Shown: positions 22,810 through 54,822 of the stretch, in pieces | Position numbering within the stretch: the stretch's first letter is position 1 | How the letters are laid out: each line of letters opens with the position of its first letter | Origin: Christensenella tenuis | GTDB taxonomy: Bacteria > Bacillota > Clostridia > Christensenellales > Christensenellaceae | Assembly (NCBI RefSeq): GCF_014287795.1 | Contig: NZ_JACOON010000006.1 | Location: 194,024-258,023, forward strand | DNA: 64,000 nucleotides | Direction: 5' to 3' | The notes under the pieces: model-generated | Told to the model about the DNA's origin: nothing | Seen by the model: only the letters and a program-made list of their open reading frames with translations | The model's database searches: none | Translations under genes and position numbers: made by a program

Positions 22810-25800
22810 TTATTTTTCCTGATGGGCTGTTTTCTTTAATTTCCGCACTGCGGAAATGAGTGCCGCCATGCCTGCGGCGGCGGCCAAAACGTATTGTAGC
22901 ACAGACGTTTCGTCTCCTGTTTGCGGCGCGCCGTCCAGTCCGTCAGCCGGTGTTTGCCCGGTTCCTGTTCCTGCTCCGCCTGCCGTCTCTTGCAGTTCTT
23001 TATGATTTTCATAGTCCGCTCTTGCAACTCCGCCTGCCGCAATAATTCCGACTGTGCCGGAGGAGCGAACGGAATATCCTTCTGCATTTTCCTGCGTTAC
23101 TTCATAAGCTGTCCCTTCCGGCAGCCCAACGGCCAGTATGCTCTCTCCCCCTTTCAAGGCAAATGACGCAACGCCGTTTATAAATGTCATATCCCCATAA
23201 GTTCCGCTAATTCCGGAATCGTTTAGGGTAACTGTGAAACCAAACTCCCGGTTCGGTTCCGCGCCGTTTCCCGACAACGTGAGGCTTACTGACAGGCTCC
23301 CTGTCCCAGTCTCCGGAACTTTTTCTTTCCAATAAACCGCAAAGGGTGAAAAACTCCCGCTGGTTTGGTTTCCTGTTAAATGGAATACCACATTTCCATC
23401 CGATATTTCGGCATTAATCACCTCTATTTCGGCCTGTTCCACTTGATTTTCCATATCTCCCCGGTATTCCCTGTGAAGCCCCTTAAAATGCAGTACCTGC
23501 GCTGTAAAACCGTTTTCGTTTACCCCTTCCGGGCATGGCCAGTATATCGTGATATCCGCGCCGTCATTTGCGCTTACCCAGGCGTTCCCGTCGTTCTCGT
23601 TTACAAGGTCAAGGTACTTGAACTCCGAATTTTCGTTTGTCAGGACGAAGCCATCTTTTGCCGCCCGGTCAATCAGGAGCTGTTTGGTGTCTTCCCCATT
23701 TTCCCCGGGAATCAAATCGTCGAACAGCAGGGATATCTGCGGCATGCCGGAAATACTGCTGCCCAGTACGCCCAGTTCTTCCCTCCCGTTCGTATAATAA
23801 ACGGTTCCCGCCGGGATGAGAGCCGCCCCTATGCCGTCCTGCGTATTGATCTCTTCTTCCAAAGCGGTAACCGGCTTTGTAATGTCGGCTTCTTTCTCAA
23901 TGACGCCTTCCGGGTCCGATACATTTCTGACGGTCAGCGTCCCGCTCCCGGTCTGGATATCCACGCTGTTTCCATCGGAAGAACTGACAGACAGGCCTTC
24001 AGTGTTGACCGTAATCTCATATTCGCCTGCGACCGCATCATTTTCAGCCATTTCGCCGCCGCTGCGGACAAGGCTTCTCATGGAGGCGCTTTCTTTCAGC
24101 GTAAATCCGGCGTCCAGCCACGGCAGGATGACAATATCCCCAGATTCGGTTCCATTTTCGAGCGTATATTCCGCACCGTCCACTTCAAACGTGAGCTTTG
24201 ACAGTTCCACTTCGTCCTCCGCTTCGATTTGATAGCGAACCGTGGGAAAGGTATCGCCGCTTATGGAATCCCCTCCGGTATATGCAATCATGTTCTGCGG
24301 GGTGAGAACGACGGTTTGTCCGGTATCCGGTGTTTCCACTTCGCTCCACGACCCCACCAGCGTTACATTTTCGTTGGGCATGATGAAACTGCTGTTTTCA
24401 ACTTCCGTATAATCCGGGGACTTCACTATCCAGCCGGAAAATTCATAACCTTTCAGGCTTGGCGCCTGCGCGACCGTTACCCGGGAATAATATGGGGCTG
24501 CCTCTGTCTCGGGAAGCACGGCCGCCGCCCCCTGCGGTACGTCGCCTTCATACTGATAAATTACATTGTGCAGGGCTGCCCGATAATAAATTTTCAGCGG
24601 ATTCTCCTCTGTAGCCTCTGCCGCGGTGGCGCTCAAGCGGTGAAACCCGTAGTTTTCATCGTAGACATAGTGAACGCCCAATATCTCAGGCTGGCTTCCT
24701 GTAATATCCTCCCAACCTAATTCCTCGCCGTCAAAGGTTAGGTGGCTGATGCTTACTGTATCACCGGGGAGCGCCCATCCCCCCTGGCCTTTCTCGTATT
24801 CCATCCAATCTTTTTCATTGGTGTCCGGGTCTATGTATTCGTAATAAACCTCATAATACCACGCCTGTTCCAACGACACCGGCCCTAAGGTCAGCAAATG
24901 GTCTTCCGTACTTCCCGAAAACGAAACATAACTGGGGACCTCCGTTTCATGCCCTTCATAGCGCGGAACCGACCCGTCAAGGGAACCGTCTTCAAACCAT
25001 TTTTCAACGCCCGGCAGCCCGCACGAACTTGCTTCGGGCAGGGTAAATACCGTATTCCCGCCGCCGTAGCTCCCTACGTCCGCCCCGGCGTCTCCCGCCT
25101 GGTTATTATAAATGGCTCCGCCCGTCATCGTGAAAGTACCGTTGCTATTTGCCACGCCGCCCCCGGTGGACGCGGCAGTATTCTCCGTTATCGTGCCACC
25201 CGTCATGCGCAGCGTGCCGCTGGCCATATTGGCCGCTCCGGCTCCATCGGGAGCGGAATTCCCTGTAATGACCGCTCCGGCAATCTCGGTCTCCGTCCCC
25301 ACATTCATCAAACCGCCGCCGGCAATGCCCGCAGTATTTTCCGATACAGTTACGCCTTGCCCAAGCACGGTCACGCCGCTCATGCTTTGTATGTGCAGTC
25401 CGCCGCCGTAACTTTTGCTGCTGTTCTTTTGCACTACAGTGTTGGAAATATTCAGCGTCGACCCAGTTGTCAGCAGAGCCCCGCCCCCATAACTATCCGC
25501 ATTGGCCATAGTCGCCGTATTGCCTTCTATCACGCAGTCTGTAAGGCTGACGGAGGCCCTTGTTCCATAAATCCCGCCGCCATGCATCGCCGTATTCCCC
25601 GCTATAGTCGTTCCCGCCGCGGCAAATGAACTTCCAGATGCGCTGTATACCCCTCCTCCATAGCTGTAATAACCGGTATGGTCCAAATCATAAAAAGCCA
25701 TATTGCCGCTGATTTCTCCGCCTTCGATTTCCACCTCGCCTCTGTTGTAGATACCCCCGCCGCCGTTTCCGCTGGTGGTCACCGCCCTATTTCCGTTAAT

Positions 25801-45947: not shown

Positions 45948-46589
45948 TCATTTAGTCCTCCGCCTTAAGTTAATAACATTCTATAATATCCCCAATAATT
46001 TTTCAAGGCATTTAAGTAAGTTGTTTTAAAAACAAATGCCCATTTTTCACGAATCATTACGAATGCAATCGGCTGTATTTCCCGAGACGACACCTACCGC
46101 TTTCCATGCTTCATCATTCCGCAAATTCGTACGCAAAAAGGATTTGGCATGTCTGCCAAATCCTTTATCGCTTTTAAAGAAACCGGTGGAGCGAGGCATA
46201 TGCGCCGCCCGAAAGCACCATAGATTCCATCCGGGATTCAAATTCACTGTTCCGTCCTTTCGCGGGCTGTTTCCTTTCCCTGCAAAATGATGGATTCCCG
46301 TTGCCCAACGGCAGCCCGCACCTTCGGCGCAGGGCGCATCCCGTCGCCTTCCTGCACGCCGGGCACGGCACAAAATTCCCCCAAGCCGCTGCACCGCGCA
46401 CATATTCCGGCGCGTGTACGTCCGCAGCAGCTAGCAAAAGTATCTCCCAAGCTAAAAACCATTGCCGTACTTCTTACCTGAACCTGCATCCAGTATAAAC
46501 ATACTTATCCAAGCAGTTTCCTTTTTTTTCATAAAATGAGCCATTTTCCTTTCCATTCCGTATATTCTAATATCAAGGAGGTAACGATC

Positions 46590-46841
46590 ATGGCAACTTT
46601 TACAGATGAAAACGGCAAAGTATTAACAGATGAGGAGCTTGAGCGGGCTGCGGGCGGATTTGGGATTTTTAATGGGAAAACAGGCCGGTCTAAAATGAGG
46701 TGGAAAGTTTGTCCCAAATGCGGCGGTACCGATTTCAAAGTCGATCCCGATCCCACTATAACAAAAACCGGCAGAGAGAATGGTCTTTATTACGCATGTA
46801 AAAAATGCGGTTGGACTGGCTGGATAGGCAATAACGAATAA
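46590..46841 (+). CDS. double-glycine-leader peptide precursor (83 aa): 23-aa leader + 60-aa core with two CxxC pairs
   Basis: AGGAGGT RBS 7 nt before the ATG. Leader MATFTDENGKVLTDEELERAAGG fits the GG-leader consensus (L-12, E-8, L-7, A-4, G-2, G-1). Core FGIFNGKTGRSKMRWKVCPKCGG...YYACKKCGWTGWIGNNE. Convergent with a C39-peptidase ABC exporter locus. Confidence 0.6.
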   Translation: MATFTDENGKVLTDEELERAAGGFGIFNGKTGRSKMRWKVCPKCGGTDFKVDPDPTITKTGRENGLYYACKKCGWTGWIGNNE

Positions 46842-46905
46842 CGGCGCCTTCCGGGCAGCGGCAAGCGGTTCCACTGCCGCCATGTTAAGCGGCGGCTTTC
46901 TTTTT

Positions 46906-48045
46906 CTACTGGCCTTCCATTTCCGTATGCACGAATTTCCCGCCTTGTATCACCAAATATTCGTAATCATACGGATCACTGTAGGAAACATCCGGCAGGC
47001 CGGTGAGAAGATCCGGAACAATATTCCCGGCGATGCCCTCTGCGCGATCCGCGTTCGCGCGCAGATTGGCAGGCAGCGTTTCATTGCTGCCGTCGTAATT
47101 TGAGGCGATCAGGTTCACAATGTCATAACCCTGTACCGCTTCGTTTTCCGGCGCCTCCCCATACTTTTCTTCATACCGCCGCGCCCATTCCGTATATTCT
47201 TCGCTTTGGTCAACCGGGTACATCGCGGGCACAACCGTTCCATCGAGCCCGCCCAGGGAATCGACCGTCTCCTGGCTGCCGAGCGTGAAGCTGGCGAGCA
47301 GTTTCATTTCCGGAAACAGCTCTTTGATTGCCGCAAGAATATCCGCGGCCCAATAAGACCTATAATAGGGAACATAGGCCGTATCTATGCCGAGCGCCCT
47401 CCAGGCATGCATTTCGTCCGCGAATTCCTGCTGCGTAAAGGGTTCGGACAGCGAGCCGGCCGTACTTGCGCCGCCTGTCCCCGACAGCAGTCCGCGTTCG
47501 AACGCATTTGCCTGCGCGATTTCAAACGGCGTTCCGCTATGTATCACCCCGACGTTTTGCGCGTTCCCGGCATTTGCGTAAAGCCCCATTGCAAACCCGA
47601 GGTGGCTCGCCGGAAGCGAGAAGGGAAAGAAGGAGGAATATCCTTTTCCCACTGTTTCGTCATAATACCCCTGTACTGCAAAAAATGCTTTATGAAAATC
47701 GTCCATTGTCTTTGCCGCAGCATCGATGACCTCATAATCCTGCAAGCTGACGACGGCAGTGATATTCGGGTCCTCCGCAAGCTTGTTGTCCGTTTCCAGC
47801 GACCCTTCAAATTCCTGCGCATCGCCATAAGTTTCCACACTGATTTGGTAAGGCCCGGTATATTCTTCGATTGCCATCTGCATTCCTTTTTCGTAGCGGG
47901 AGGCGTTATATTCCATGCCGCTGCGGTAAACGAGCGCAATCCTGATTGCGTTTGCGTCCTGCTGCACCGGCTGCTGCGCGCAGCCTGCAAACAGAACGCC
48001 CGCCACAACCAGGATGCATACCAGAATAAATATTATTTTTCTCAT
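46906..48045 (-). CDS. PBP type I (Leu/Ile/Val-binding-like) substrate-binding lipoprotein, no cognate permease nearby
   Basis: Lipoprotein signal ...LFAGCAQ. Type I periplasmic-binding-fold pattern. Confidence 0.55.
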   Translation of the reverse strand: MRKIIFILVCILVVAGVLFAGCAQQPVQQDANAIRIALVYRSGMEYNASRYEKGMQMAIEEYTGPYQISVETYGDAQEFEGSLETDNKLAEDPNITAVVSLQDYEVIDAAAKTMDDFHKAFFAVQGYYDETVGKGYSSFFPFSLPASHLGFAMGLYANAGNAQNVGVIHSGTPFEIAQANAFERGLLSGTGGASTAGSLSEPFTQQEFADEMHAWRALGIDTAYVPYYRSYWAADILAAIKELFPEMKLLASFTLGSQETVDSLGGLDGTVVPAMYPVDQSEEYTEWARRYEEKYGEAPENEAVQGYDIVNLIASNYDGSNETLPANLRANADRAEGIAGNIVPDLLTGLPDVSYSDPYDYEYLVIQGGKFVHTEMEGQ

Positions 48046-48072: not shown

Positions 48073-50211
48073 TTATTTGATTTGGCGTGCGGCAAACTCA
48101 TAAAACAGTCCTTTCTTTCCCATGAGCTCGTCGTATGTTCCTTCCTCCGCAATCCTGCCGCCGTCAATCATCACAATCCGGTCGCATTTTTTTACGGTGG
48201 ACAGACGGTGTGCAATCACGATCCGCGTGCACCCGAGCTTTGCAATATTTTCAGCAACCTCGTTTTGCACAACGTTATCGAGGGCGCTTGTCGCTTCGTC
48301 AAACAAAAGCACTTGCGGCTTTCCGGCGAGAGCGCGCGCAATCAGAATCCGCTGCTTCTGGCCGCCGGAAATTCCGCCGCTGCCTTCGCTGATCATGGTA
48401 TACATACCCATGGGCATCTGCCCGATGTCTTCCGCGATCCCCGCGAGGCGCGCGGCCTCCCAGGCCTCGTCCAGTGTGCTCCACGGCGCAGTCAGTGTAA
48501 TATTGGAAAAAATATCCCCTGCGAACAGCTTTCCGTTTTGCAGGTCAACGCCGATCCTCTGGCGCATGCTTCGCAGGTCAAGCTCTTCGATGTCTTCGCC
48601 GTCGAAATAAACCGCGCCCGCTTCCGGCTTCTCAAAGCCGATCAGCAGCCGCATCAGCGTAGATTTCCCGCACCCGCTTTTTCCCACAATTCCAACGTAT
48701 TCCCCCGGTTTGATGTGCAGGCTGAAATCGTCGAGAACAACGGGCAAATCTTCACGGTACCGGAAGGTCACGTGGGAAAGCTCCACCTCGCCCCGGAGCT
48801 CTGCCACCTGCTTTTTGTTTTCGCCGGTTTCCGGCTGCGCGTCATAAATCGGCTGGACCATCTCCAGCAGCGGCCCTATGGACGCAAGCTGGGCCGTAAT
48901 GCCCGCAAGCGCCAGAAGCGCGGCAGAAACCGCTCCATAGGCGGTTGAAAAAGCAATATAGTCCGACTGTGAAACCTCGTTTTCTCCAGCAACGAAATAA
49001 AGGAGGATTGTGCCGCCGAGCGTGACAGCCGCTGAAATCGCGGTGCTGAACTTCAAAAACAGGGGCGGATTGTAGGAAAGCCTTCCCTCCTGCGAAAACA
49101 GCTTTGCCCATTTGGCAAACGCCCTCTTTTCCGCCCCGGCAAGTTTGATTTTCTGGATCCCGCCAAACAGGCTGAATACCAGGCCGTTCAGCTTGATGGA
49201 AATATCCGTTTTCCGCTTGGAAACATGAATTTGGACAATTGCCGTGAGGACAATGACCGCAAGCATAGCTGCAATGACGAGCATCCCCGGCCCCACGAGC
49301 GTAGGGGCAAAGGAGGCCATCTGGAAAATATACACAAATGAAAACAAAGCGGAAAGCCCGGTTGTAAGGACTGTTCCGGAAAGAATCTCCCCGATCGCGT
49401 TCATGCTGCCCACGCGTTCGGAAAGTTCGCCCGCCGAATAGTCTTTAAAAAAGGAAACGGGCAGGGAAAATACCCGTGACATCACCGCGTTTTGCGAAGC
49501 CACCGACATTTTATCCATAAACCGGCGCAGGATGAGGCTGCGCGATATGCCGAAAAGCAGGCTCCCGACCGTGGCCCCGACAAGAAGGGCCGTTACCGGA
49601 AAAACATCCGCCGTCAGGCCGCCGGGAATGATATTATCAAAAATCAGCTTGTTGATCTGCGGAAGGACCATCCCAAGGAGGCTTACGCACAGCGACGCGA
49701 CAAGCACCCAGATGACATCCCCCACGGAAAAGGAATGCAGGCGGAACATCAGCGTATCGATGAGCTTCAGCGGTTTGGCGGGAAACCCGCGGTAAAAGCA
49801 GAGCGCCTGCTCCAGAAGCTCCCCGGCTGTTTTTTCGTTGATCCGTACTTTTCCGTTTTCGTCATGGTAAGCGTAGCCGCCAAAGGCCATAGGCAGCAGC
49901 GCCACCGGCGTTCCGTCTTTTTTTGCGCCAAGCAGCGGCCCTGTCGCGTCCTTCCACCATTTTCCGGTCAGCTCCACGCGCCGGTGCATGACGCCGGTCG
50001 GCCGCAGCACATATTCAACCCTTTCATATGGATCTTCAATTTTGTCCGGCACTTCCCCCGCTTCGATCTTCCAAAAACGAAGCACCTCCTGCAACGCGCC
50101 GTCGATTCCCTTTTTTCGGTCAGGCGCGCTTTTTCCCGCGTGCGGTTTCTCAAAAATCGAAAGAAGGTCCCGGAGCGCTTCGTCCATTGCCTTTTGTTCC
50201 TCTTTTCCCAC
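48073..50211 (-). CDS. ABC transporter ATPase/permease with ~150 aa N-terminal peptidase-less domain (NHLM-type bacteriocin exporter, second ABC component)
   Basis: N-terminal soluble domain lacking a catalytic Cys, 6 TM, NBD (GKSGCGKST, LSGGQKQR, LLFDEATSALD, IAHRLST). Confidence 0.7.
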   Translation of the reverse strand: MGKEEQKAMDEALRDLLSIFEKPHAGKSAPDRKKGIDGALQEVLRFWKIEAGEVPDKIEDPYERVEYVLRPTGVMHRRVELTGKWWKDATGPLLGAKKDGTPVALLPMAFGGYAYHDENGKVRINEKTAGELLEQALCFYRGFPAKPLKLIDTLMFRLHSFSVGDVIWVLVASLCVSLLGMVLPQINKLIFDNIIPGGLTADVFPVTALLVGATVGSLLFGISRSLILRRFMDKMSVASQNAVMSRVFSLPVSFFKDYSAGELSERVGSMNAIGEILSGTVLTTGLSALFSFVYIFQMASFAPTLVGPGMLVIAAMLAVIVLTAIVQIHVSKRKTDISIKLNGLVFSLFGGIQKIKLAGAEKRAFAKWAKLFSQEGRLSYNPPLFLKFSTAISAAVTLGGTILLYFVAGENEVSQSDYIAFSTAYGAVSAALLALAGITAQLASIGPLLEMVQPIYDAQPETGENKKQVAELRGEVELSHVTFRYREDLPVVLDDFSLHIKPGEYVGIVGKSGCGKSTLMRLLIGFEKPEAGAVYFDGEDIEELDLRSMRQRIGVDLQNGKLFAGDIFSNITLTAPWSTLDEAWEAARLAGIAEDIGQMPMGMYTMISEGSGGISGGQKQRILIARALAGKPQVLLFDEATSALDNVVQNEVAENIAKLGCTRIVIAHRLSTVKKCDRIVMIDGGRIAEEGTYDELMGKKGLFYEFAARQIK

Positions 50212-50232: not shown

Positions 50233-52356
50233 TCAATCGTCCAACAATTTTTCGTAGGTTCCATGCCTCGCGAGCAGGCTTTCATGCGTGCCGCGCTCCG
50301 CCACGTTCCCATGATCCAGGACAATAATTTCCCCGCAGTCGCGGATCGTTGAAAGCCGGTGGGCAATGATAATGAGCGTGATCCCCTTCTCTTTCAGGTT
50401 TTCCATGATTTGCTGCTCTGTTTTGGCGTCCAGGGCGGACGTCGCCTCGTCCAGAATCAAAACGGACGGTTTCCTGACCAGGGCGCGGGCAATCTCAAGG
50501 CGCTGGCGCTGCCCCCCGGAATAATTTTTCCCGCCGTCCACCACCATATCGTCGTATCCGTCCGGACGCAGCATAATATCCTCATGGATTTCGGCGGTCT
50601 TGCATGCCTCGACCACATCCGAAAAGGGAATGCTCCGGTCCCACATTGTAATGTTATTCAGCACCGTATCCTCAAACAGGACGATTTCCTGATCCACCAC
50701 GCTTACGGAATCCGTAAGAATGCTCCGCGGGATCTCCCCGCGCGGGGTTCCGTCGAACAAAATACGTCCCTCCCACGGCGGATACAGCCCGGAGATCAGT
50801 TTAGCCAACGTCGATTTTCCGCTACCCGAAGCACCGACGAACGCAATGCTCTTTCCGCATTCCACGTGCAGGCTGAATTCCGAGATCAGCGGCGGCGAAA
50901 GTTTCGCGTACCCAAACGTCACGCCTTCCATATCGACCGTCCCCCGCAGTTTTCCGTCCGCTTCCCCTTCTTCGGATACGTCCGGTTTATAATGGAATAC
51001 GTCGTCGATCCGTTCCATTTGTGTGCGCATTTCAAAAAACGTCGTGCCTACCTGCACAATTTCGTTGACCGGCGCGAGGAAAGAAGACAAAATTCCCTGG
51101 AACGCAAGCAGGGTACCTATGGTGAAGCTGCCGTCCAGAATGAGGTATACGCCGAGCATCAGCACCGCGATATTCGCAAGCTGCTGCACAAACTGCGGAA
51201 TCATATTATAAAACTGGTTTGCTTTTTGCAGTTGGATTTTTCCGTTGTTGGCGCGGGCATACGTCCCGCTCCAGCGTTCAAAATACCCGTTTTCCGCCCC
51301 TGCCGCCTTGATGCTTTCCGCCATATCGAAGCCTGCCGCGGTAACGCCCGAAAGAAGGCCCATATCCCGCTCAATCACCCGGCTGGCATTGACGCGTTTT
51401 TTGGCAATGATACGCATGACCGCCAAATTCACCGCAGCGGCGGCAATGCCCACAGCGGAAAGAAGGACGCTGTAGCGCAGCAGGACGATCAGGTACAGCA
51501 CCAGCAGGCACACGTTGACGGCAAGCGGCGCGATCCTTCCGATCAGCGTAGAGGCGATTCCTTCATTGCTTGCCTGCCGCGCGGCAATATCGCCGATATA
51601 GCGCTGTGCAAAAAAACCGACCGGCAGCCGCAGCACATGCCACATGAAGGACGAGCTGGCCACCGTTGCCATCTTCCCCTGAATACGCATCCAATATACA
51701 TTCTGGATGGACGCCGTTACAAACTGGAAAACCAGCACCGCCAGCATGACGGAAATGAGAGGCGTCAGCCATTCCGGATTTTTCCCGGATAAAATGTTGT
51801 CCATAAACACCTTGGAAAACAGGGGAATTACAATGGCAATGGCCGCAGCAATGAGCGACCACAGCATCACAAACACAACCGCCCCCCGGCTCCCCCGGAG
51901 TCTTTTCCTTGCAAAATCCATAACGCTCGCGGGCTTTCCTTCCCGCCGGAACGCCTCCGCCGGTTCGAAGCAAAGGACAATTCCGGTGAACGAGCGGTCA
52001 AATTCCTCCATGCCCACGGATATCCTTCCGCGCGCCGGGTCGTTTATCACAGCTTTGTCTCCTTTGAACCCGCACAGCACAACGAAATGGTTAAAATTCC
52101 AATGCAGGATAGCCGGAAAGCCACACTGTTTTACATCCTCGATTTCCATCCGGTAGCCCGCGGCCTCAAGGCCGTAGGCCCTCGCTGCCGTCACGAGGCT
52201 TTTCGCGCTGCTGCCGTCGCGCGATACCCCGCAATCGCCGCGCACCTGTTCCAGCGACAGCCATTTCCCATAAAAGGCAAGCACCATCGCCAGGCAGGCG
52301 GCTCCGCATTCAAGCGCCTCCATCTGCATAACCACCGGGACCTTTGCCACCTTCAT
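50233..52356 (-). CDS. peptidase C39-containing ABC transporter (bacteriocin/double-glycine peptide maturation and export, PCAT)
   Basis: N-terminal C39 domain with catalytic Cys (QMEALECGAACLAMVLAFYG) and His (NFNHFVVL). 6 TM. NBD (GASGSGKST, YSGGQRQRL, LILDEATSALD, IAHRLST). Confidence 0.85.
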   Translation of the reverse strand: MKVAKVPVVMQMEALECGAACLAMVLAFYGKWLSLEQVRGDCGVSRDGSSAKSLVTAARAYGLEAAGYRMEIEDVKQCGFPAILHWNFNHFVVLCGFKGDKAVINDPARGRISVGMEEFDRSFTGIVLCFEPAEAFRREGKPASVMDFARKRLRGSRGAVVFVMLWSLIAAAIAIVIPLFSKVFMDNILSGKNPEWLTPLISVMLAVLVFQFVTASIQNVYWMRIQGKMATVASSSFMWHVLRLPVGFFAQRYIGDIAARQASNEGIASTLIGRIAPLAVNVCLLVLYLIVLLRYSVLLSAVGIAAAAVNLAVMRIIAKKRVNASRVIERDMGLLSGVTAAGFDMAESIKAAGAENGYFERWSGTYARANNGKIQLQKANQFYNMIPQFVQQLANIAVLMLGVYLILDGSFTIGTLLAFQGILSSFLAPVNEIVQVGTTFFEMRTQMERIDDVFHYKPDVSEEGEADGKLRGTVDMEGVTFGYAKLSPPLISEFSLHVECGKSIAFVGASGSGKSTLAKLISGLYPPWEGRILFDGTPRGEIPRSILTDSVSVVDQEIVLFEDTVLNNITMWDRSIPFSDVVEACKTAEIHEDIMLRPDGYDDMVVDGGKNYSGGQRQRLEIARALVRKPSVLILDEATSALDAKTEQQIMENLKEKGITLIIIAHRLSTIRDCGEIIVLDHGNVAERGTHESLLARHGTYEKLLDD

Positions 52357-52367
52357 ATGCCGCCTCC

Positions 52368-53300
52368 TCACGAATTAAGCAAAAGCTCGTAAGGCTTCTG
52401 TTCGTCTATGACGACGAGGAGGTCGCAGACGGTTCCCGTTGAAAGCTCGAGCGTATTTCCTTTTGGGTTCGACCACGCCGCGGAATTTCCCGCACCGCTG
52501 TATTCCGCGTCAAGCGAAATAGACACCCTGACTTCGATGCTGTTGCCCTCTTCCATGATCTCCGCTACATATTGCTTGTTTCCCACGGCGGCCGTAATAT
52601 CGTTATCCGTCACCGGATACTCCCCGATTTCGGAAATATAGCCTATCATATATCCATATTCCTCGCGCGAGACATAAGACGGGCAGGCCTGCACCTCCAT
52701 CCCTTCCGAAAGCTTGCGCGCTGTATCCACAGGCACATAACACAGGATTTCATAACTGTTCGTGCCCTCCTCGATCCGCGCGAGGCTGGCAACCTGTTCG
52801 TTCTCCCCCACAATATCGTTCACGTGCACCGTATCCAGCACGATTCCATAAACCTCCGAACGGATGACCGAGGCGGCGGCATATTCATTTTGTTTTTGCA
52901 TAATCAGCGTCTCGTCCTTTTCTTCCGCCGCCTGCAGCTGTTCGAGTTCGGCCGCGAGTTCCGGCTGCGGGATCACTGCCAGAATATCGTGCGGCATGAC
53001 CATATCCCCAACGCTTACGCGCACGTCATGCACCTTCCCGCCGCCTGTCGAGAGCACGGAAACCGTGCCGTCCCCCGGGAACACTACTCCCTTCATTTCA
53101 AGGGTATCTGGAATCGTGCCGACGGCAAACCAGACGGCCGCCGCCACCACAACGGCAATGCAGGCAACCAGCACGCTCCATATGCCGGGATTTGTTATTT
53201 TCACATATTCATCCAGTTTTTCCGGGGAAGCTGCGTTTTCTAGCGATTTCTTCCGAAAAAGGTCTTTGGCCATAGCAATCTCCCAATTTGTTTTATCCAT
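52368..53300 (-). CDS. HlyD-family membrane fusion/secretion accessory protein
   Basis: N-terminal cytoplasmic tail, single TM (IWSVLVACIAVVVAAAVWFAV), coiled-coil (ELAAELEQLQAAEEKDETL) and beta-barrel-sandwich segments. Confidence 0.7.
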   Translation of the reverse strand: MDKTNWEIAMAKDLFRKKSLENAASPEKLDEYVKITNPGIWSVLVACIAVVVAAAVWFAVGTIPDTLEMKGVVFPGDGTVSVLSTGGGKVHDVRVSVGDMVMPHDILAVIPQPELAAELEQLQAAEEKDETLIMQKQNEYAAASVIRSEVYGIVLDTVHVNDIVGENEQVASLARIEEGTNSYEILCYVPVDTARKLSEGMEVQACPSYVSREEYGYMIGYISEIGEYPVTDNDITAAVGNKQYVAEIMEEGNSIEVRVSISLDAEYSGAGNSAAWSNPKGNTLELSTGTVCDLLVVIDEQKPYELLLNS

Positions 53301-53349: not shown

Positions 53350-53874
53350 CTAATCCATTAAATCACGAATTTCCTCTGTACGCAATTTTTTTAACGTCCG
53401 CCCGAGAACTGTGCCTACCGTGCTTTCGTTCATGCCAAGCCGTTTTGCGATCTCTCTATTTTTATATCCTTCAAAGTAACGATAGTATAGGATCATGCGC
53501 TCCTTTTCTTTCAGGCCCATAAGTTCCCGCAGCAACGCCCGCCGCTTAGGCAAAGCGATCCTGTCAAACTGAACGTCGAAATCCACGGCAATTTCCACCC
53601 GTGCGTTTTCGTCGTCCAACGAGGCCTCTTTTTTCTGTTTCCGGTAAAAATCGGTCAGGGTATTTTTTGCGATATGGAATATCCAGGTTTTAAACGAAGC
53701 CTTCTTTTCATCAAACCGGTGCATATTTTTTGCAGCCTTCATGAAAGTTTCGCTTACCAGGTCTTCCGTATCCTCCCTGCGAAGGATGCGGTAAAAAATA
53801 TAATTGTATATTTTGGGAAAATATTCTTCATACAGCTCTTCAAAAGCTTTGACGTGCGTCATTCCGAACTCCAT
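53350..53874 (-). CDS. RNA polymerase sigma-70 factor, ECF subfamily
   Basis: Region 2 (FEELYEEYFPKIYNYIFYRILRREDTEDLVSETFMKA) and region 4 HTH (YKNREIAKRLGMNESTVGTVLGRTLKKLR). Confidence 0.85.
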   Translation of the reverse strand: MEFGMTHVKAFEELYEEYFPKIYNYIFYRILRREDTEDLVSETFMKAAKNMHRFDEKKASFKTWIFHIAKNTLTDFYRKQKKEASLDDENARVEIAVDFDVQFDRIALPKRRALLRELMGLKEKERMILYYRYFEGYKNREIAKRLGMNESTVGTVLGRTLKKLRTEEIRDLMD

Positions 53875-54233
53875 TCATTCCTGCGTTTTATGCATTCGTA
53901 TCCTTTGTTCGCGGCAGACCGCCCTGCCAAAAAAATTTTTGGCAGGAAAAACCATTTCCGCAGCTTTTTCAGGTCATATTGAGCTATCTTTTTTCTCCAG
54001 ACGTATATCCTTTATGGAGGCGCAGAACCAAAGGGGTCTCCGTGGAAAAAGGAACCTCTGCGCGGCACAGGCGCGAAGCTTCAAAAAACCGCGGCTATAC
54101 TCCGGCGGAGGGCCGCAACGGTGTGAAATTTCCGCATCCGCGGGCGGTTTTGCTATGCCGGAAAAATAAAATCCGGCCTTCCGGGGGCGGATGTTTTCCG
54201 TTCTGTGCAGCCGCTCCGTGGCTTTTGCACTCT

Positions 54234-54464
54234 TCAGCGCACGGTATCGTCCTTGTTCCTGTCCATATCTTCCATTGGGCAGGGCACACCCGCCGCATGG
54301 ATCTCTTCCAGTTCGCTGTCCGCCAATTGACGGAAGCACTTTTTTTGAATCATCTGAAGCAGGTCTTTCTTCAGCCCGCTGTCCAGCGAAAAATCCGCAA
54401 AATCCGGAACCCCGTTCCTGCTTCTTTCACCGTCTGGAAAGGAAAACAGTTTTTCTCTCTTGTT
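54234..54464 (-). CDS. small peptide (77 aa) with Nif11/NHLP-like leader C-terminus (..LADSELEEIHAAG) and short Cys-containing tail; uncertain
   Basis: GGGGGAG RBS 9 nt before ATG (MNKREKLF...). The segment QLADSELEEIHAAG|VPCPMEDMDRNKDDTVR resembles leader ends of the LSDEELEAVAGG type. Lies upstream of the ECF sigma and exporter genes on the same strand. Confidence 0.35.
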   Translation of the reverse strand, partial: NKREKLFSFPDGERSRNGVPDFADFSLDSGLKKDLLQMIQKKCFRQLADSELEEIHAAGVPCPMEDMDRNKDDTVR

Positions 54465-54822
54465 CATCTGCTCAATCTCCCCCATTGCTATTTATATCCT
54501 ATACGCGCGATGCAATGAAGCGGCTCATTTTCACAGGAAAATCCGGTTTTACCCGTGGGGATTCGTCCGGCCCGGTTTGCCTTTCCGGGTGCCGTTGCGG
54601 GCCTTGGCCCCGGCTTCTTCGCACGTTTGGCTGCGGCAGGGAAATAAAACGCGCATTTTAACATCGTTTATTATATGCCGGCCCGCCCCCTATTGTCCTT
54701 TTCCCGGATATCCGGTATTCGGAAAAGGGGCCTTTTTACCATCCCTCTTACAGCCAAACCGGCCACAGCCGCGCACAGGCCTTTTGCCCGCCGTCCGCTT
54801 TTTCCCGATGCGGGGAAGGCCG

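Follow-up and report, generated by a model that had tools for sequence, protein, structure and literature searches.

The 64-kb stretch of the Christensenella tenuis genome analyzed here (64,000 nucleotides of contig NZ_JACOON010000006.1; hereafter, the window) contains at positions 46590-46841 of the plus strand a small gene whose product is probably a peptide that is bound by a C39 peptidase domain, cut after Gly23 and exported. This assignment is drawn from the sequences of the locus and of its relatives. The gene belongs to a compact island that spans about 8 kb (46.5-54.5 kb) and also contains an operon with an extracytoplasmic function (ECF) sigma factor and a peptidase-containing ATP-binding cassette (ABC) transporter (PCAT), and a second small open reading frame (ORF), here called ORF2. 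Double-glycine leaders and C39 exporters are well known. What is new here is the zinc-ribbon-like core of a double-glycine PCAT peptide, and an ECF-type promoter motif common to the peptide gene and ORF2. We found no zinc-ribbon-like double-glycine cargo in Pfam, in NCBIfam release 20 or in the searchable literature, and no description of an ECF-controlled C39 locus in the searchable literature.

The peptide gene starts with an ATG at 46590 and ends with a TAA at 46839-46841. It encodes 83 amino acids, namely the double-glycine leader MATFTDENGKVLTDEELERAAGG (23 aa, 46590-46658) followed by the core FGIFNGKTGRSKMRWKVCPKCGGTDFKVDPDPTITKTGRENGLYYACKKCGWTGWIGNNE (60 aa, 46659-46841 with the stop codon), and its product is WP_186858523.1, labelled as a hypothetical protein of Christensenella tenuis. 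The ribosome-binding site that the initial annotation of this DNA had pointed out, AGGAGGT, lies at 46576-46582, with an ideal spacer of 7 nt to the ATG. An alternative in-frame ATG at 46536 has no ribosome-binding site and falls inside the promoter motif described below. Because of this, and because the homologs of the peptide all begin with MA(T/N)F, we take the 83-aa form as the product. The gene is convergent with the exporter operon, as had also been noted, and 64 nt separate its stop codon from that of the lipoprotein gene at the end of the operon. The two are parted by a G+C-rich terminator-like hairpin at 46874-46895 followed by CTTTCTTTTT, so that hairpin and T-run together span 46874-46905. 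We searched all 2243 small-ORF start variants of the window with a regular expression for the leader motif, and besides this ORF it picked up a single internal fragment, from the gene of an AMP-binding enzyme. The shortness of the ORF, and a word-indexed (k-mer) protein search that returned the peptide alone, are what one would expect of a chance ORF or an annotation artefact. The strong ribosome-binding site, the terminator and the conserved promoter motif argue otherwise, and so do a syntenic ortholog in a second genus and homologs with E-values down to 2e-8 in an exhaustive HMMER search, and down to 1e-28 with a family profile. Since homologs exist, this explanation is already refuted and its probability is close to nil: the ORF is a real gene.

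The leader shows the register expected of a double-glycine leader, with L-12, E-8, L-7, A-4, G-2 and G-1 (L12, E16, L17, A20 and G22-G23 of the precursor). These are the diagnostic positions listed in the initial annotation, and they are kept in the family: position -12 is L or M, E-8 and L-7 are invariant, position -4 is A or V, and the GG is invariant in 10 sequences. With 23 residues and a GG end, the leader falls within the 15-30-aa range of the class that ends in GG, GA or GS. For the peptidase LahT150, the last 13 leader residues suffice, and uncharged residues are required at -4, -7 and -12 (PMC6363468). The enzyme cuts at GG, GA and GS sites and tolerates highly diverse cores, that is, any P' sequence (PMC6363468). 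Judged from its residues, the leader of the peptide follows every one of these rules. In the AlphaFold2 model of the peptide, residues 14-20 form a helix, which is the position of the two-turn recognition helix bound to LahT150 (PMC6363468). In the comparison with leader hidden Markov models that had been proposed, the peptide has no match to TIGR03793 or TIGR03798, and other family members reach E-values of 0.04-0.3 over the last 15-26 model positions alone. A lack of homologs with a double-glycine leader had also been named as an argument against export; what we found is the reverse, and the double-glycine leader is a conserved family feature rather than a chance likeness.

The minus-strand operon facing the peptide gene runs from 53874 to 46906 and encodes, in this order, the sigma factor, a HlyD-like adaptor, the C39 ABC exporter, a second ABC protein and a lipoprotein. 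The ECF-type sigma factor (53350-53874) has the sigma-70 regions 2 and 4 only (Pfam Sigma70_r2 and r4_2; TIGR02937, 109 bits with a cut-off of 42.9). The adaptor (52368-53300) is of the NHLP-type export family (TIGR03794, 199 bits with a cut-off of 156). The PCAT (TIGR03796, 946 bits with a cut-off of 853) occupies 50233-52371 if read from its first GTG; its probable start is the ATG at residue 6 (52356), which fits the alignment with LahT and is the start given in the initial annotation. The second ABC permease/ATPase (48073-50211; TIGR03797, 741 bits with a cut-off of 709) has no peptidase domain, and its N-terminal 165 residues have no detectable likeness to the C39 domain, to any Protein Data Bank (PDB) chain or to Pfam. 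The lipoprotein, encoded by the last gene of the operon (46906-48045), has a type-I periplasmic-binding fold (Peripla_BP_6, 54 bits in Pfam) and a lipobox-like ...LFAGC. By these adjacent matches to TIGR03794, TIGR03796 and TIGR03797, all above their cut-offs, the exporter is recognizable as a complete three-gene NHLP/Nif11-type system. The PCAT lies 3.4 kb from the peptide gene. Its peptidase domain aligns with LahT150 (PDB 6mpz) with an E-value of 2.4e-58 and about 73% identity, and Q16, C22, H95 and D111 align with LahT Q21, C27, H101 and D117. The domain is therein predicted to be catalytically intact, in keeping with the adjacent C39 exporter that had been described from the letters of the sequence.

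The same island is present in Guopingia tenuis NSJ-63 (L005) and in five related metagenome contigs (L014-L018). The order in all of them is ORF2, sigma factor, HlyD-like adaptor, PCAT, second ABC protein and lipoprotein, directly followed by a 76-aa member of the peptide family. Between the window and Guopingia, the exporter proteins are 56-70% identical and the peptides 46%; the lipoprotein shares 56% identity with its positional equivalent, and the sigma factor 70% with its counterpart. The peptide gene is co-directional with the operon in Guopingia and convergent with it in the window. The flanks also differ, with a sugar ABC system, its ROK regulator and AEC-type transporters in the window, and Cu/Zn superoxide dismutase and dihydroxyacetone kinase in Guopingia. 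As the peptide gene has flipped and the flanking genes differ, the module has stayed together through rearrangement and relocation. The linkage between peptide and exporter is thus conserved in a second genus. The initial annotation had proposed to look for such peptide genes next to C39 transporters of related genomes. The family members on contigs L009-L012, L001 and L006 have no exporter nearby. Guopingia-like genomes have a second family member at the other end of the island, of 90 aa and with a 37-aa leader. The copy of NSJ-63 is a decaying pseudogene: an A7 run carries a frameshift, the -10 element has become CGCATA and the ribosome-binding site is lost. We also observed that this second member (L005 2176-2463 and L014 9566-9838, both on the minus strand) is divergent from ORF2 and has its own promoter, ATGAGCT-N16-CGTATA.

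The relatives of the peptide were found with an exhaustive HMMER scan over 1.84 billion representative proteins. They are small proteins of 76-96 aa with the same leader and core design. In the alignment of 10 sequences, M1, F4, G9, E15, E16, L17, G22, G23, C44, C70 and C73 are invariant, and C41 is kept in nine. Conservation is thus concentrated in the leader, especially at the positions read by the C39 peptidase, and in the four cysteines, with the rest of the core varying freely. The family is rare, with about a dozen clusters among 5.8 billion sequences. They come from human-gut, rumen and other metagenomes, all anaerobic habitats, and the named sources are C. tenuis, Guopingia tenuis, "Clostridiales" metagenome-assembled genomes (MAGs) and a Coriobacteriaceae MAG. 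Pattern scans of genomes and metagenomes for the family, with at least two loci each, leave its distribution under-sampled. Two groups of matches were rejected as members. P0002 and P0004 (3657 and 4090 aa) are giants with leucine-rich, cadherin and Ig repeats in which many weak 'GGTD..F.IV' matches had been summed, and P0013-P0015 show generic zinc-ribbon likeness, with two zinc-ribbon units and a match to the core only (E about 4e-4).

Several family genes lie in tandem arrays, seven on contig L002 and three on L003. The mean identity in the array of seven is 76% between leaders and 26% between cores; the latter range in pI from 4.7 to 9.0 and have CxC in place of CxxC in two cases. On the same 2.2-kb contig (L002 1-2195) the leader is internally duplicated, with the pattern MATFRDENGKxLTxEELxxMMESxxPLTDEELEQxxGG. 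The 37-aa leader of the Guopingia-like genomes, which ends in LSDDELENVDGG, is a third subtype. Finally, a relative from Coriobacteriaceae (L006) bears a true Nif11 leader (TIGR03798, 35.4 bits with a cut-off of 32.3) on a CxxCG...CxKCG core. Such swapping of leaders on one kind of core has been described by Haft et al. for the cargo of this export system (PMC2887384). With its tandem arrays, conserved leaders on variable cores and a leader swap, the family carries the hallmarks of exported peptides.

Upstream of the peptide gene lies the ECF-type promoter motif ATGAGCC-N16-CGTATA (46536-46564, plus strand; AAAATGAGCC-N16-CGTATA), whose -10 element ends 25 nt before the ATG. A second exact copy is found at 54500-54528 on the minus strand, upstream of ORF2. 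No other exact copy occurs in the window, so that both precede small genes of the island, and about 0.002 further copies of this pattern of 13 specified bases are expected by chance. This is the layout of ECF-sigma promoters, in which the -10 element typically contains CGT and the spacer is of fixed length. In the 20-kb locus of L005, TGAG-N18/19-CGTAT has exactly two matches, both before small genes (0.26 expected). On L014, TGAG-N18-CGTATA occurs in two exact copies, back to back before the 90-aa paralog and ORF2 (0.01 expected); the 76-aa gene there is preceded by an N19 variant. The family gene on L001, an unrelated contig, likewise has a relaxed copy in front of it, and on L003 and L013 CGTATG is found at the same distance. 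Overall, CGTAT occurs 31-55 nt before the ATG in seven of the nine promoter regions examined. We are inclined to read ATGAGCC-N16-CGTATA as the promoter recognized by the ECF sigma factor of the island and driving its small genes.

A third, imperfect copy of the motif, TTGAGCT-N16-CGTATA, lies at 53979-54007 (plus strand) in the spacer between ORF2 and the sigma gene, on the opposite strand and pointing into the 3' end of ORF2. About 0.005 such matches are expected in a spacer of this size. The copy is absent from the shorter ORF2-sigma spacer of Guopingia, and could be a relic or an antisense promoter. Downstream of it there are only an Arg-rich ORF of 51 aa (54014-54169) and terminator-like hairpins. 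The same spacer holds a perfect palindrome, CCTGCCAAAAATTTTTTTGGCAGG, at 53923-53946, about 50 nt upstream of the sigma gene, which could be an operator or an attenuator. Elsewhere in the window, ATGAAAC-N16-CGTATA is found at 24383-24411 (plus strand), inside and antisense to a gene for a 1467-aa surface protein. It is near the SigW-type consensus of Bacillus, and is probably due to chance.

ORF2 (54234-54467, minus strand) is an unannotated gene of 77 aa that is itself leader-like and conserved in synteny in Guopingia. It keeps the register L-12, E-8, L-7 and I or V at -4 (I-4 in the window), with Ala-Ala in place of Gly-Gly, followed by an invariant G-x-P and by a charged, partly conserved tail. 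Its identity with the syntenic Guopingia gene is 44% over 50 aa (E 2e-9), and homologs were found in close relatives only. In the protein collection searched, ORF2 itself is missing: there is no NCBI entry from C. tenuis, and the sole near match is a Logan variant with 96% identity. ORF2 has no match in Pfam or NCBIfam. Its AlphaFold2 model consists of helices at 32-47 and 50-58 and little else, with a predicted local distance difference test (pLDDT) score of about 62, and has no significant Foldseek match in PDB. We found no anti-sigma gene in the island, and ORF2, the sole unassigned neighbor, has no match to an anti-sigma domain. The product could be a second cargo or an inducer peptide; it might also bind the peptidase without being cut, or take the place of an anti-sigma factor. 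The option of an inducer peptide is suggested by its position first in a regulatory operon, like the inducing-peptide genes of class II bacteriocins.

We then come to the core, which had been described as basic, rich in Trp and Gly, carrying two CxxC pairs and unusual among bacteriocins and signal peptides. The description holds: the 60 residues have a pI of 9.4, a net charge of +5.7, three Trp and 10 Gly, with the cysteines at residues 41, 44, 70 and 73 of the precursor (C41-x2-C44 and C70-x2-C73). The two CxxC knuckles are about 25 residues apart, with a spacer of the size of a beta-hairpin, which is the spacing of zinc ribbons. Scans of the peptide and of all 10 aligned members against Pfam, NCBIfam and PHROGs returned no consistent family. 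The comparison with zinc-ribbon families, which had been suggested, gave a divided answer. Many zinc-ribbon models of Pfam and NCBIfam match, differing from member to member, and all of them weakly: the best scores are 20.6 bits for TIGR03655 (cut-off 39.6) and up to 24.7 for NF047912 (cut-off 37), and no curated zinc-ribbon model exceeds its cut-off for the peptide or for the 10 aligned members. The AlphaFold2 model of the core has three strands, with a local pLDDT of 70-80. Its top Foldseek matches in PDB are all zinc ribbons (eIF2-beta, Rpa12/Rpb9, ELOF1 and Rpp21), with E-values of 0.03 or weaker. The core is thus best described as zinc-ribbon-like and outside every curated family. Zinc is plausible because all known sources are strict-anaerobe habitats, where disulfides are unreliable. 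A metal-stabilized fold is attractive in this setting, as an argument rather than as evidence.

Several observations weigh against an exported, unmodified peptide with a zinc-ribbon-like core. The overall pLDDT of the peptide model, 62.5, is of moderate confidence, and Foldseek returned no significant structural match in PDB. One of the knuckles is CxC instead of CxxC in three family members. The cores of the family are hydrophilic and some of those in the L002 array are acidic (pI range 4.2-9.4), which is not typical of class II bacteriocins that act on membranes. The island lacks a small transmembrane immunity gene, and the sigma factor and the motif are linked by co-occurrence alone. As for the relatives, those on L009-L012 lie between gyrA and an acetyltransferase gene and not beside an exporter. 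The member on L001 (3302-3600) has PadR and DUF2812 genes as neighbors, together with a two-component system and an FtsX ABC transporter of BceAB-like type; the usual task of such modules is to sense peptide antibiotics or to detoxify them. Contig L001 (10 kb) carries no PCAT, and L006 has none within 10 kb. Lastly, the N-terminus of the leader, MA(T/N)FxDxxGK, is conserved past what the C39 domain needs, which suggests a further partner, perhaps a modifying enzyme whose gene lies elsewhere. On the gyrA loci we further noted that the member, of P0003 type, stands alone between gyrA and a maltose O-acetyltransferase gene with its own terminator (L009 2451-2681, also on L010-L012), and that the L009 locus has no CGTAT motif and no exporter within 3 kb.

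Some of these points would be expected if the peptide were an ordinary intracellular zinc-ribbon protein that happens to lie beside the exporter and whose leader-like N-terminus is never processed; it might be a small regulator or work together with the ECF sigma factor. The weak matches of the core to Lar, ECs_2282, YnfU, TFS and eIF2-beta also go in this direction, as do the three proteins of 210-230 aa, with two CPxCG...CHxCGWRGW units each, that match the core at an E-value of about 4e-4. Moreover, several members are without a nearby exporter, one of them beside gyrA, and the island has no recognizable anti-sigma factor. The cytoplasm is where zinc ribbons normally fold, whereas the cargo of a PCAT is believed to pass through in an unfolded state. 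However, the invariant N-terminal positions are precisely those that C39 domains read (GG, L-7, E-8, L/M-12 and A/V-4), and a core of this kind also occurs behind a bona fide Nif11 export leader. A housekeeping regulator would not be expected in tandem arrays whose leaders are conserved and whose cores are hypervariable, family genes end the exporter island in two genera despite rearrangement, and no zinc-ribbon model is matched at its curated cut-off. We therefore consider an intracellular role quite improbable.

The conserved leader N-terminus, which the peptidase does not need, would instead be explained if the peptide were the precursor of a ribosomally made, post-translationally modified peptide (RiPP). 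In this case its cysteines, and Ser/Thr, would be the substrate of an enzyme whose gene lies elsewhere in the genome, such as a radical-SAM thioether synthase (sactipeptide or ranthipeptide type) or a lanthionine synthetase, and the island would provide cleavage and export only, as for the scattered Nif11 and prochlorosin precursors. Nif11-type leaders and NHLP-type exporters are classically tied to modified peptides, and the precursors are often far from the enzymes (PMC2887384). LahT itself comes from a lanthipeptide cluster, one relative has a true Nif11 leader (L006), and the multi-copy arrays, with their diverse cores, are reminiscent of LahA1-9 and the prochlorosins. On the other hand, the window shows no gene for LanM, LanB, LanC, YcaO or a SPASM radical-SAM enzyme, judging from the ORF layout and from Pfam scans of the neighbors and of the ten largest other ORFs, which agrees with what had been read from the sequence at first. 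No maturase was found near the relatives on L001, L005, L006 or L014, that is, within 10 kb in Guopingia or L006 or anywhere on the 10 kb of L001. The sole radical-SAM gene that we met, on L001, was rejected as a maturase: it encodes a protein of 289 aa of the small housekeeping type, with a Radical_SAM_C domain, and PadR and DUF2812 genes intervene. In addition, two CxxC(G) knuckles about 25 residues apart are the pattern of a zinc ribbon and not of ring formation, and conservation within the core is limited to the cysteines and a few scaffold residues. The lack of a nearby maturase fits an unmodified peptide, and we regard modification by a distant enzyme as unlikely.

If the peptide is cleaved and exported as we propose, the ECF sigma factor would transcribe its gene and ORF2 from their common promoter, as the shared ATGAGCC-N16-CGTATA suggests. 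By homology with LahT150, the 83-aa precursor would dock on the C39 domain of the PCAT via a leader helix that exposes L-12, L-7 and A-4. The peptidase would then cut after Gly23, and adaptor, PCAT and second ABC protein would release the 60-aa core (calculated mass, 6719.6 Da). Once outside, the core would be held in a small three-stranded fold by its four cysteines, through one Zn2+ or two disulfides. More speculatively, other cells may be the target of the mature peptide, which would serve as a bacteriocin-like antagonist or a signal; an antimicrobial role is conceivable, and we propose it only tentatively. The lipoprotein at the end of the operon is, by its position only, a candidate immunity or receptor protein. 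One can go further and picture the whole island as a self-contained, sigma-driven secretion circuit of a type so far undescribed, with a zinc-ribbon mini-protein as its cargo and with control run by ORF2, either as an exported inducer or by keeping the sigma factor inactive until the exporter carries ORF2 away, in the manner of FlgM and sigma-28. This scheme is rather unlikely as it stands. If it were true, a metal-stabilized zinc ribbon in place of disulfide or thioether cross-links would make a new structural class of PCAT-exported peptides.

Compared to known double-glycine peptides exported by PCATs or ABC transporter maturation and secretion (AMS) proteins (class II bacteriocins, ComC/ComA and PCAT1/CtA), the system shares the GG leader with L-12, E-8, L-7 and a small hydrophobic residue at -4, as well as a dedicated C39 ABC exporter with an accessory protein and no need for a modification enzyme. 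It differs in its hydrophilic, four-cysteine, zinc-ribbon-like core of 50-60 aa, where theirs are amphiphilic or hydrophobic, in the lack of a small transmembrane immunity gene, in the two-ABC NHLP-type exporter, and in the apparent ECF sigma control in place of a pair of histidine kinase and response regulator. The ECF-controlled clusters of microbisporicin (MibX/MibW) and planosporicin (PspX/PspW) and the inducer regulons pln, spp and blp have, as here, a dedicated regulator within the cluster, one promoter element before both the structural gene and the regulatory operon, and a small peptide gene first in the regulatory operon. Unlike them, the island has neither an anti-sigma factor nor a two-component system. 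Glycocins such as sublancin, with four cysteines in two nested disulfides, and the ruminococcin C sactipeptides, with a tandem array of five genes, resemble the system in their short or GG-type leader, in their four structural cysteines and hairpin-like fold, and in occurring as multi-copy arrays in gut Firmicutes. They depend on a glycosyltransferase or radical-SAM enzyme that is encoded in the cluster, and their cysteines are spaced differently (CX6C or CxC/CxxxC). The locus has no such enzyme. Small zinc-ribbon proteins (Lar, YnfU and ECs_2282; TFS/Rpb9 and eIF2-beta) have two CxxC about 25 residues apart and a predicted three-stranded sheet in common with the core, but the known ones are cytoplasmic and without an export leader, and all matches to them are below cut-off.

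The exporter is itself a full member of the NHLP and Nif11 families (Haft, Basu and Mitchell 2010, PMC2887384), with which the locus shares the three-gene exporter, the Gly-Gly cleavage motif, paralogous expansion and the mix-and-match of leaders and cores, down to a relative that is a true Nif11-leader protein (L006). In contrast to these families, the leader in the window is not matched by TIGR03793 or TIGR03798, neither thiazole/oxazole-modified microcin (TOMM) nor LanM machinery is present, and the cores are not rich in heterocyclizable or dehydratable residues. With LahT/LahA of Lachnospiraceae C6A11 (Bobeica et al. 2019, PMC6363468; PDB 6mpz) the locus shares the peptidase, about 73% identical and with the same catalytic residues, multiple precursors with conserved leaders and diverse cores, and an anaerobic gut or rumen habitat; LahA has Nif11-type leaders and a LanM enzyme, and the locus in the window has neither.

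Should the core bind zinc outside the cell, it would show how obligate anaerobes can do without oxidative chemistry in stabilizing the peptides they secrete. A further question would then concern transport, namely whether the PCAT moves the cargo unfolded and the metal is loaded later. Christensenellaceae are health-associated and heritable members of the human gut whose microbial interactions are poorly understood, and a separately regulated secreted peptide offers a handle on them. Thanks to the common promoter motif the regulon is directly testable, and the closeness of the peptidase to LahT150 makes cleavage testable with an existing reagent. The family is small, and these results are a promising lead that overturns nothing.

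Two minor observations concern the DNA around the peptide gene. The 590-bp spacer between the ROK regulator gene and the peptide promoter (45948-46535) is partly G+C-rich and has no credible ORF, no Rfam match and no remnant of the family by profile search; it contains a hairpin with a 13-bp stem at 46137-46166. The Rfam search returned nothing near the peptide locus, and identified, unrelated to the peptide, a cobalamin riboswitch (RF00174, 78 bits) at 1710-1873 of the window, on the minus strand.

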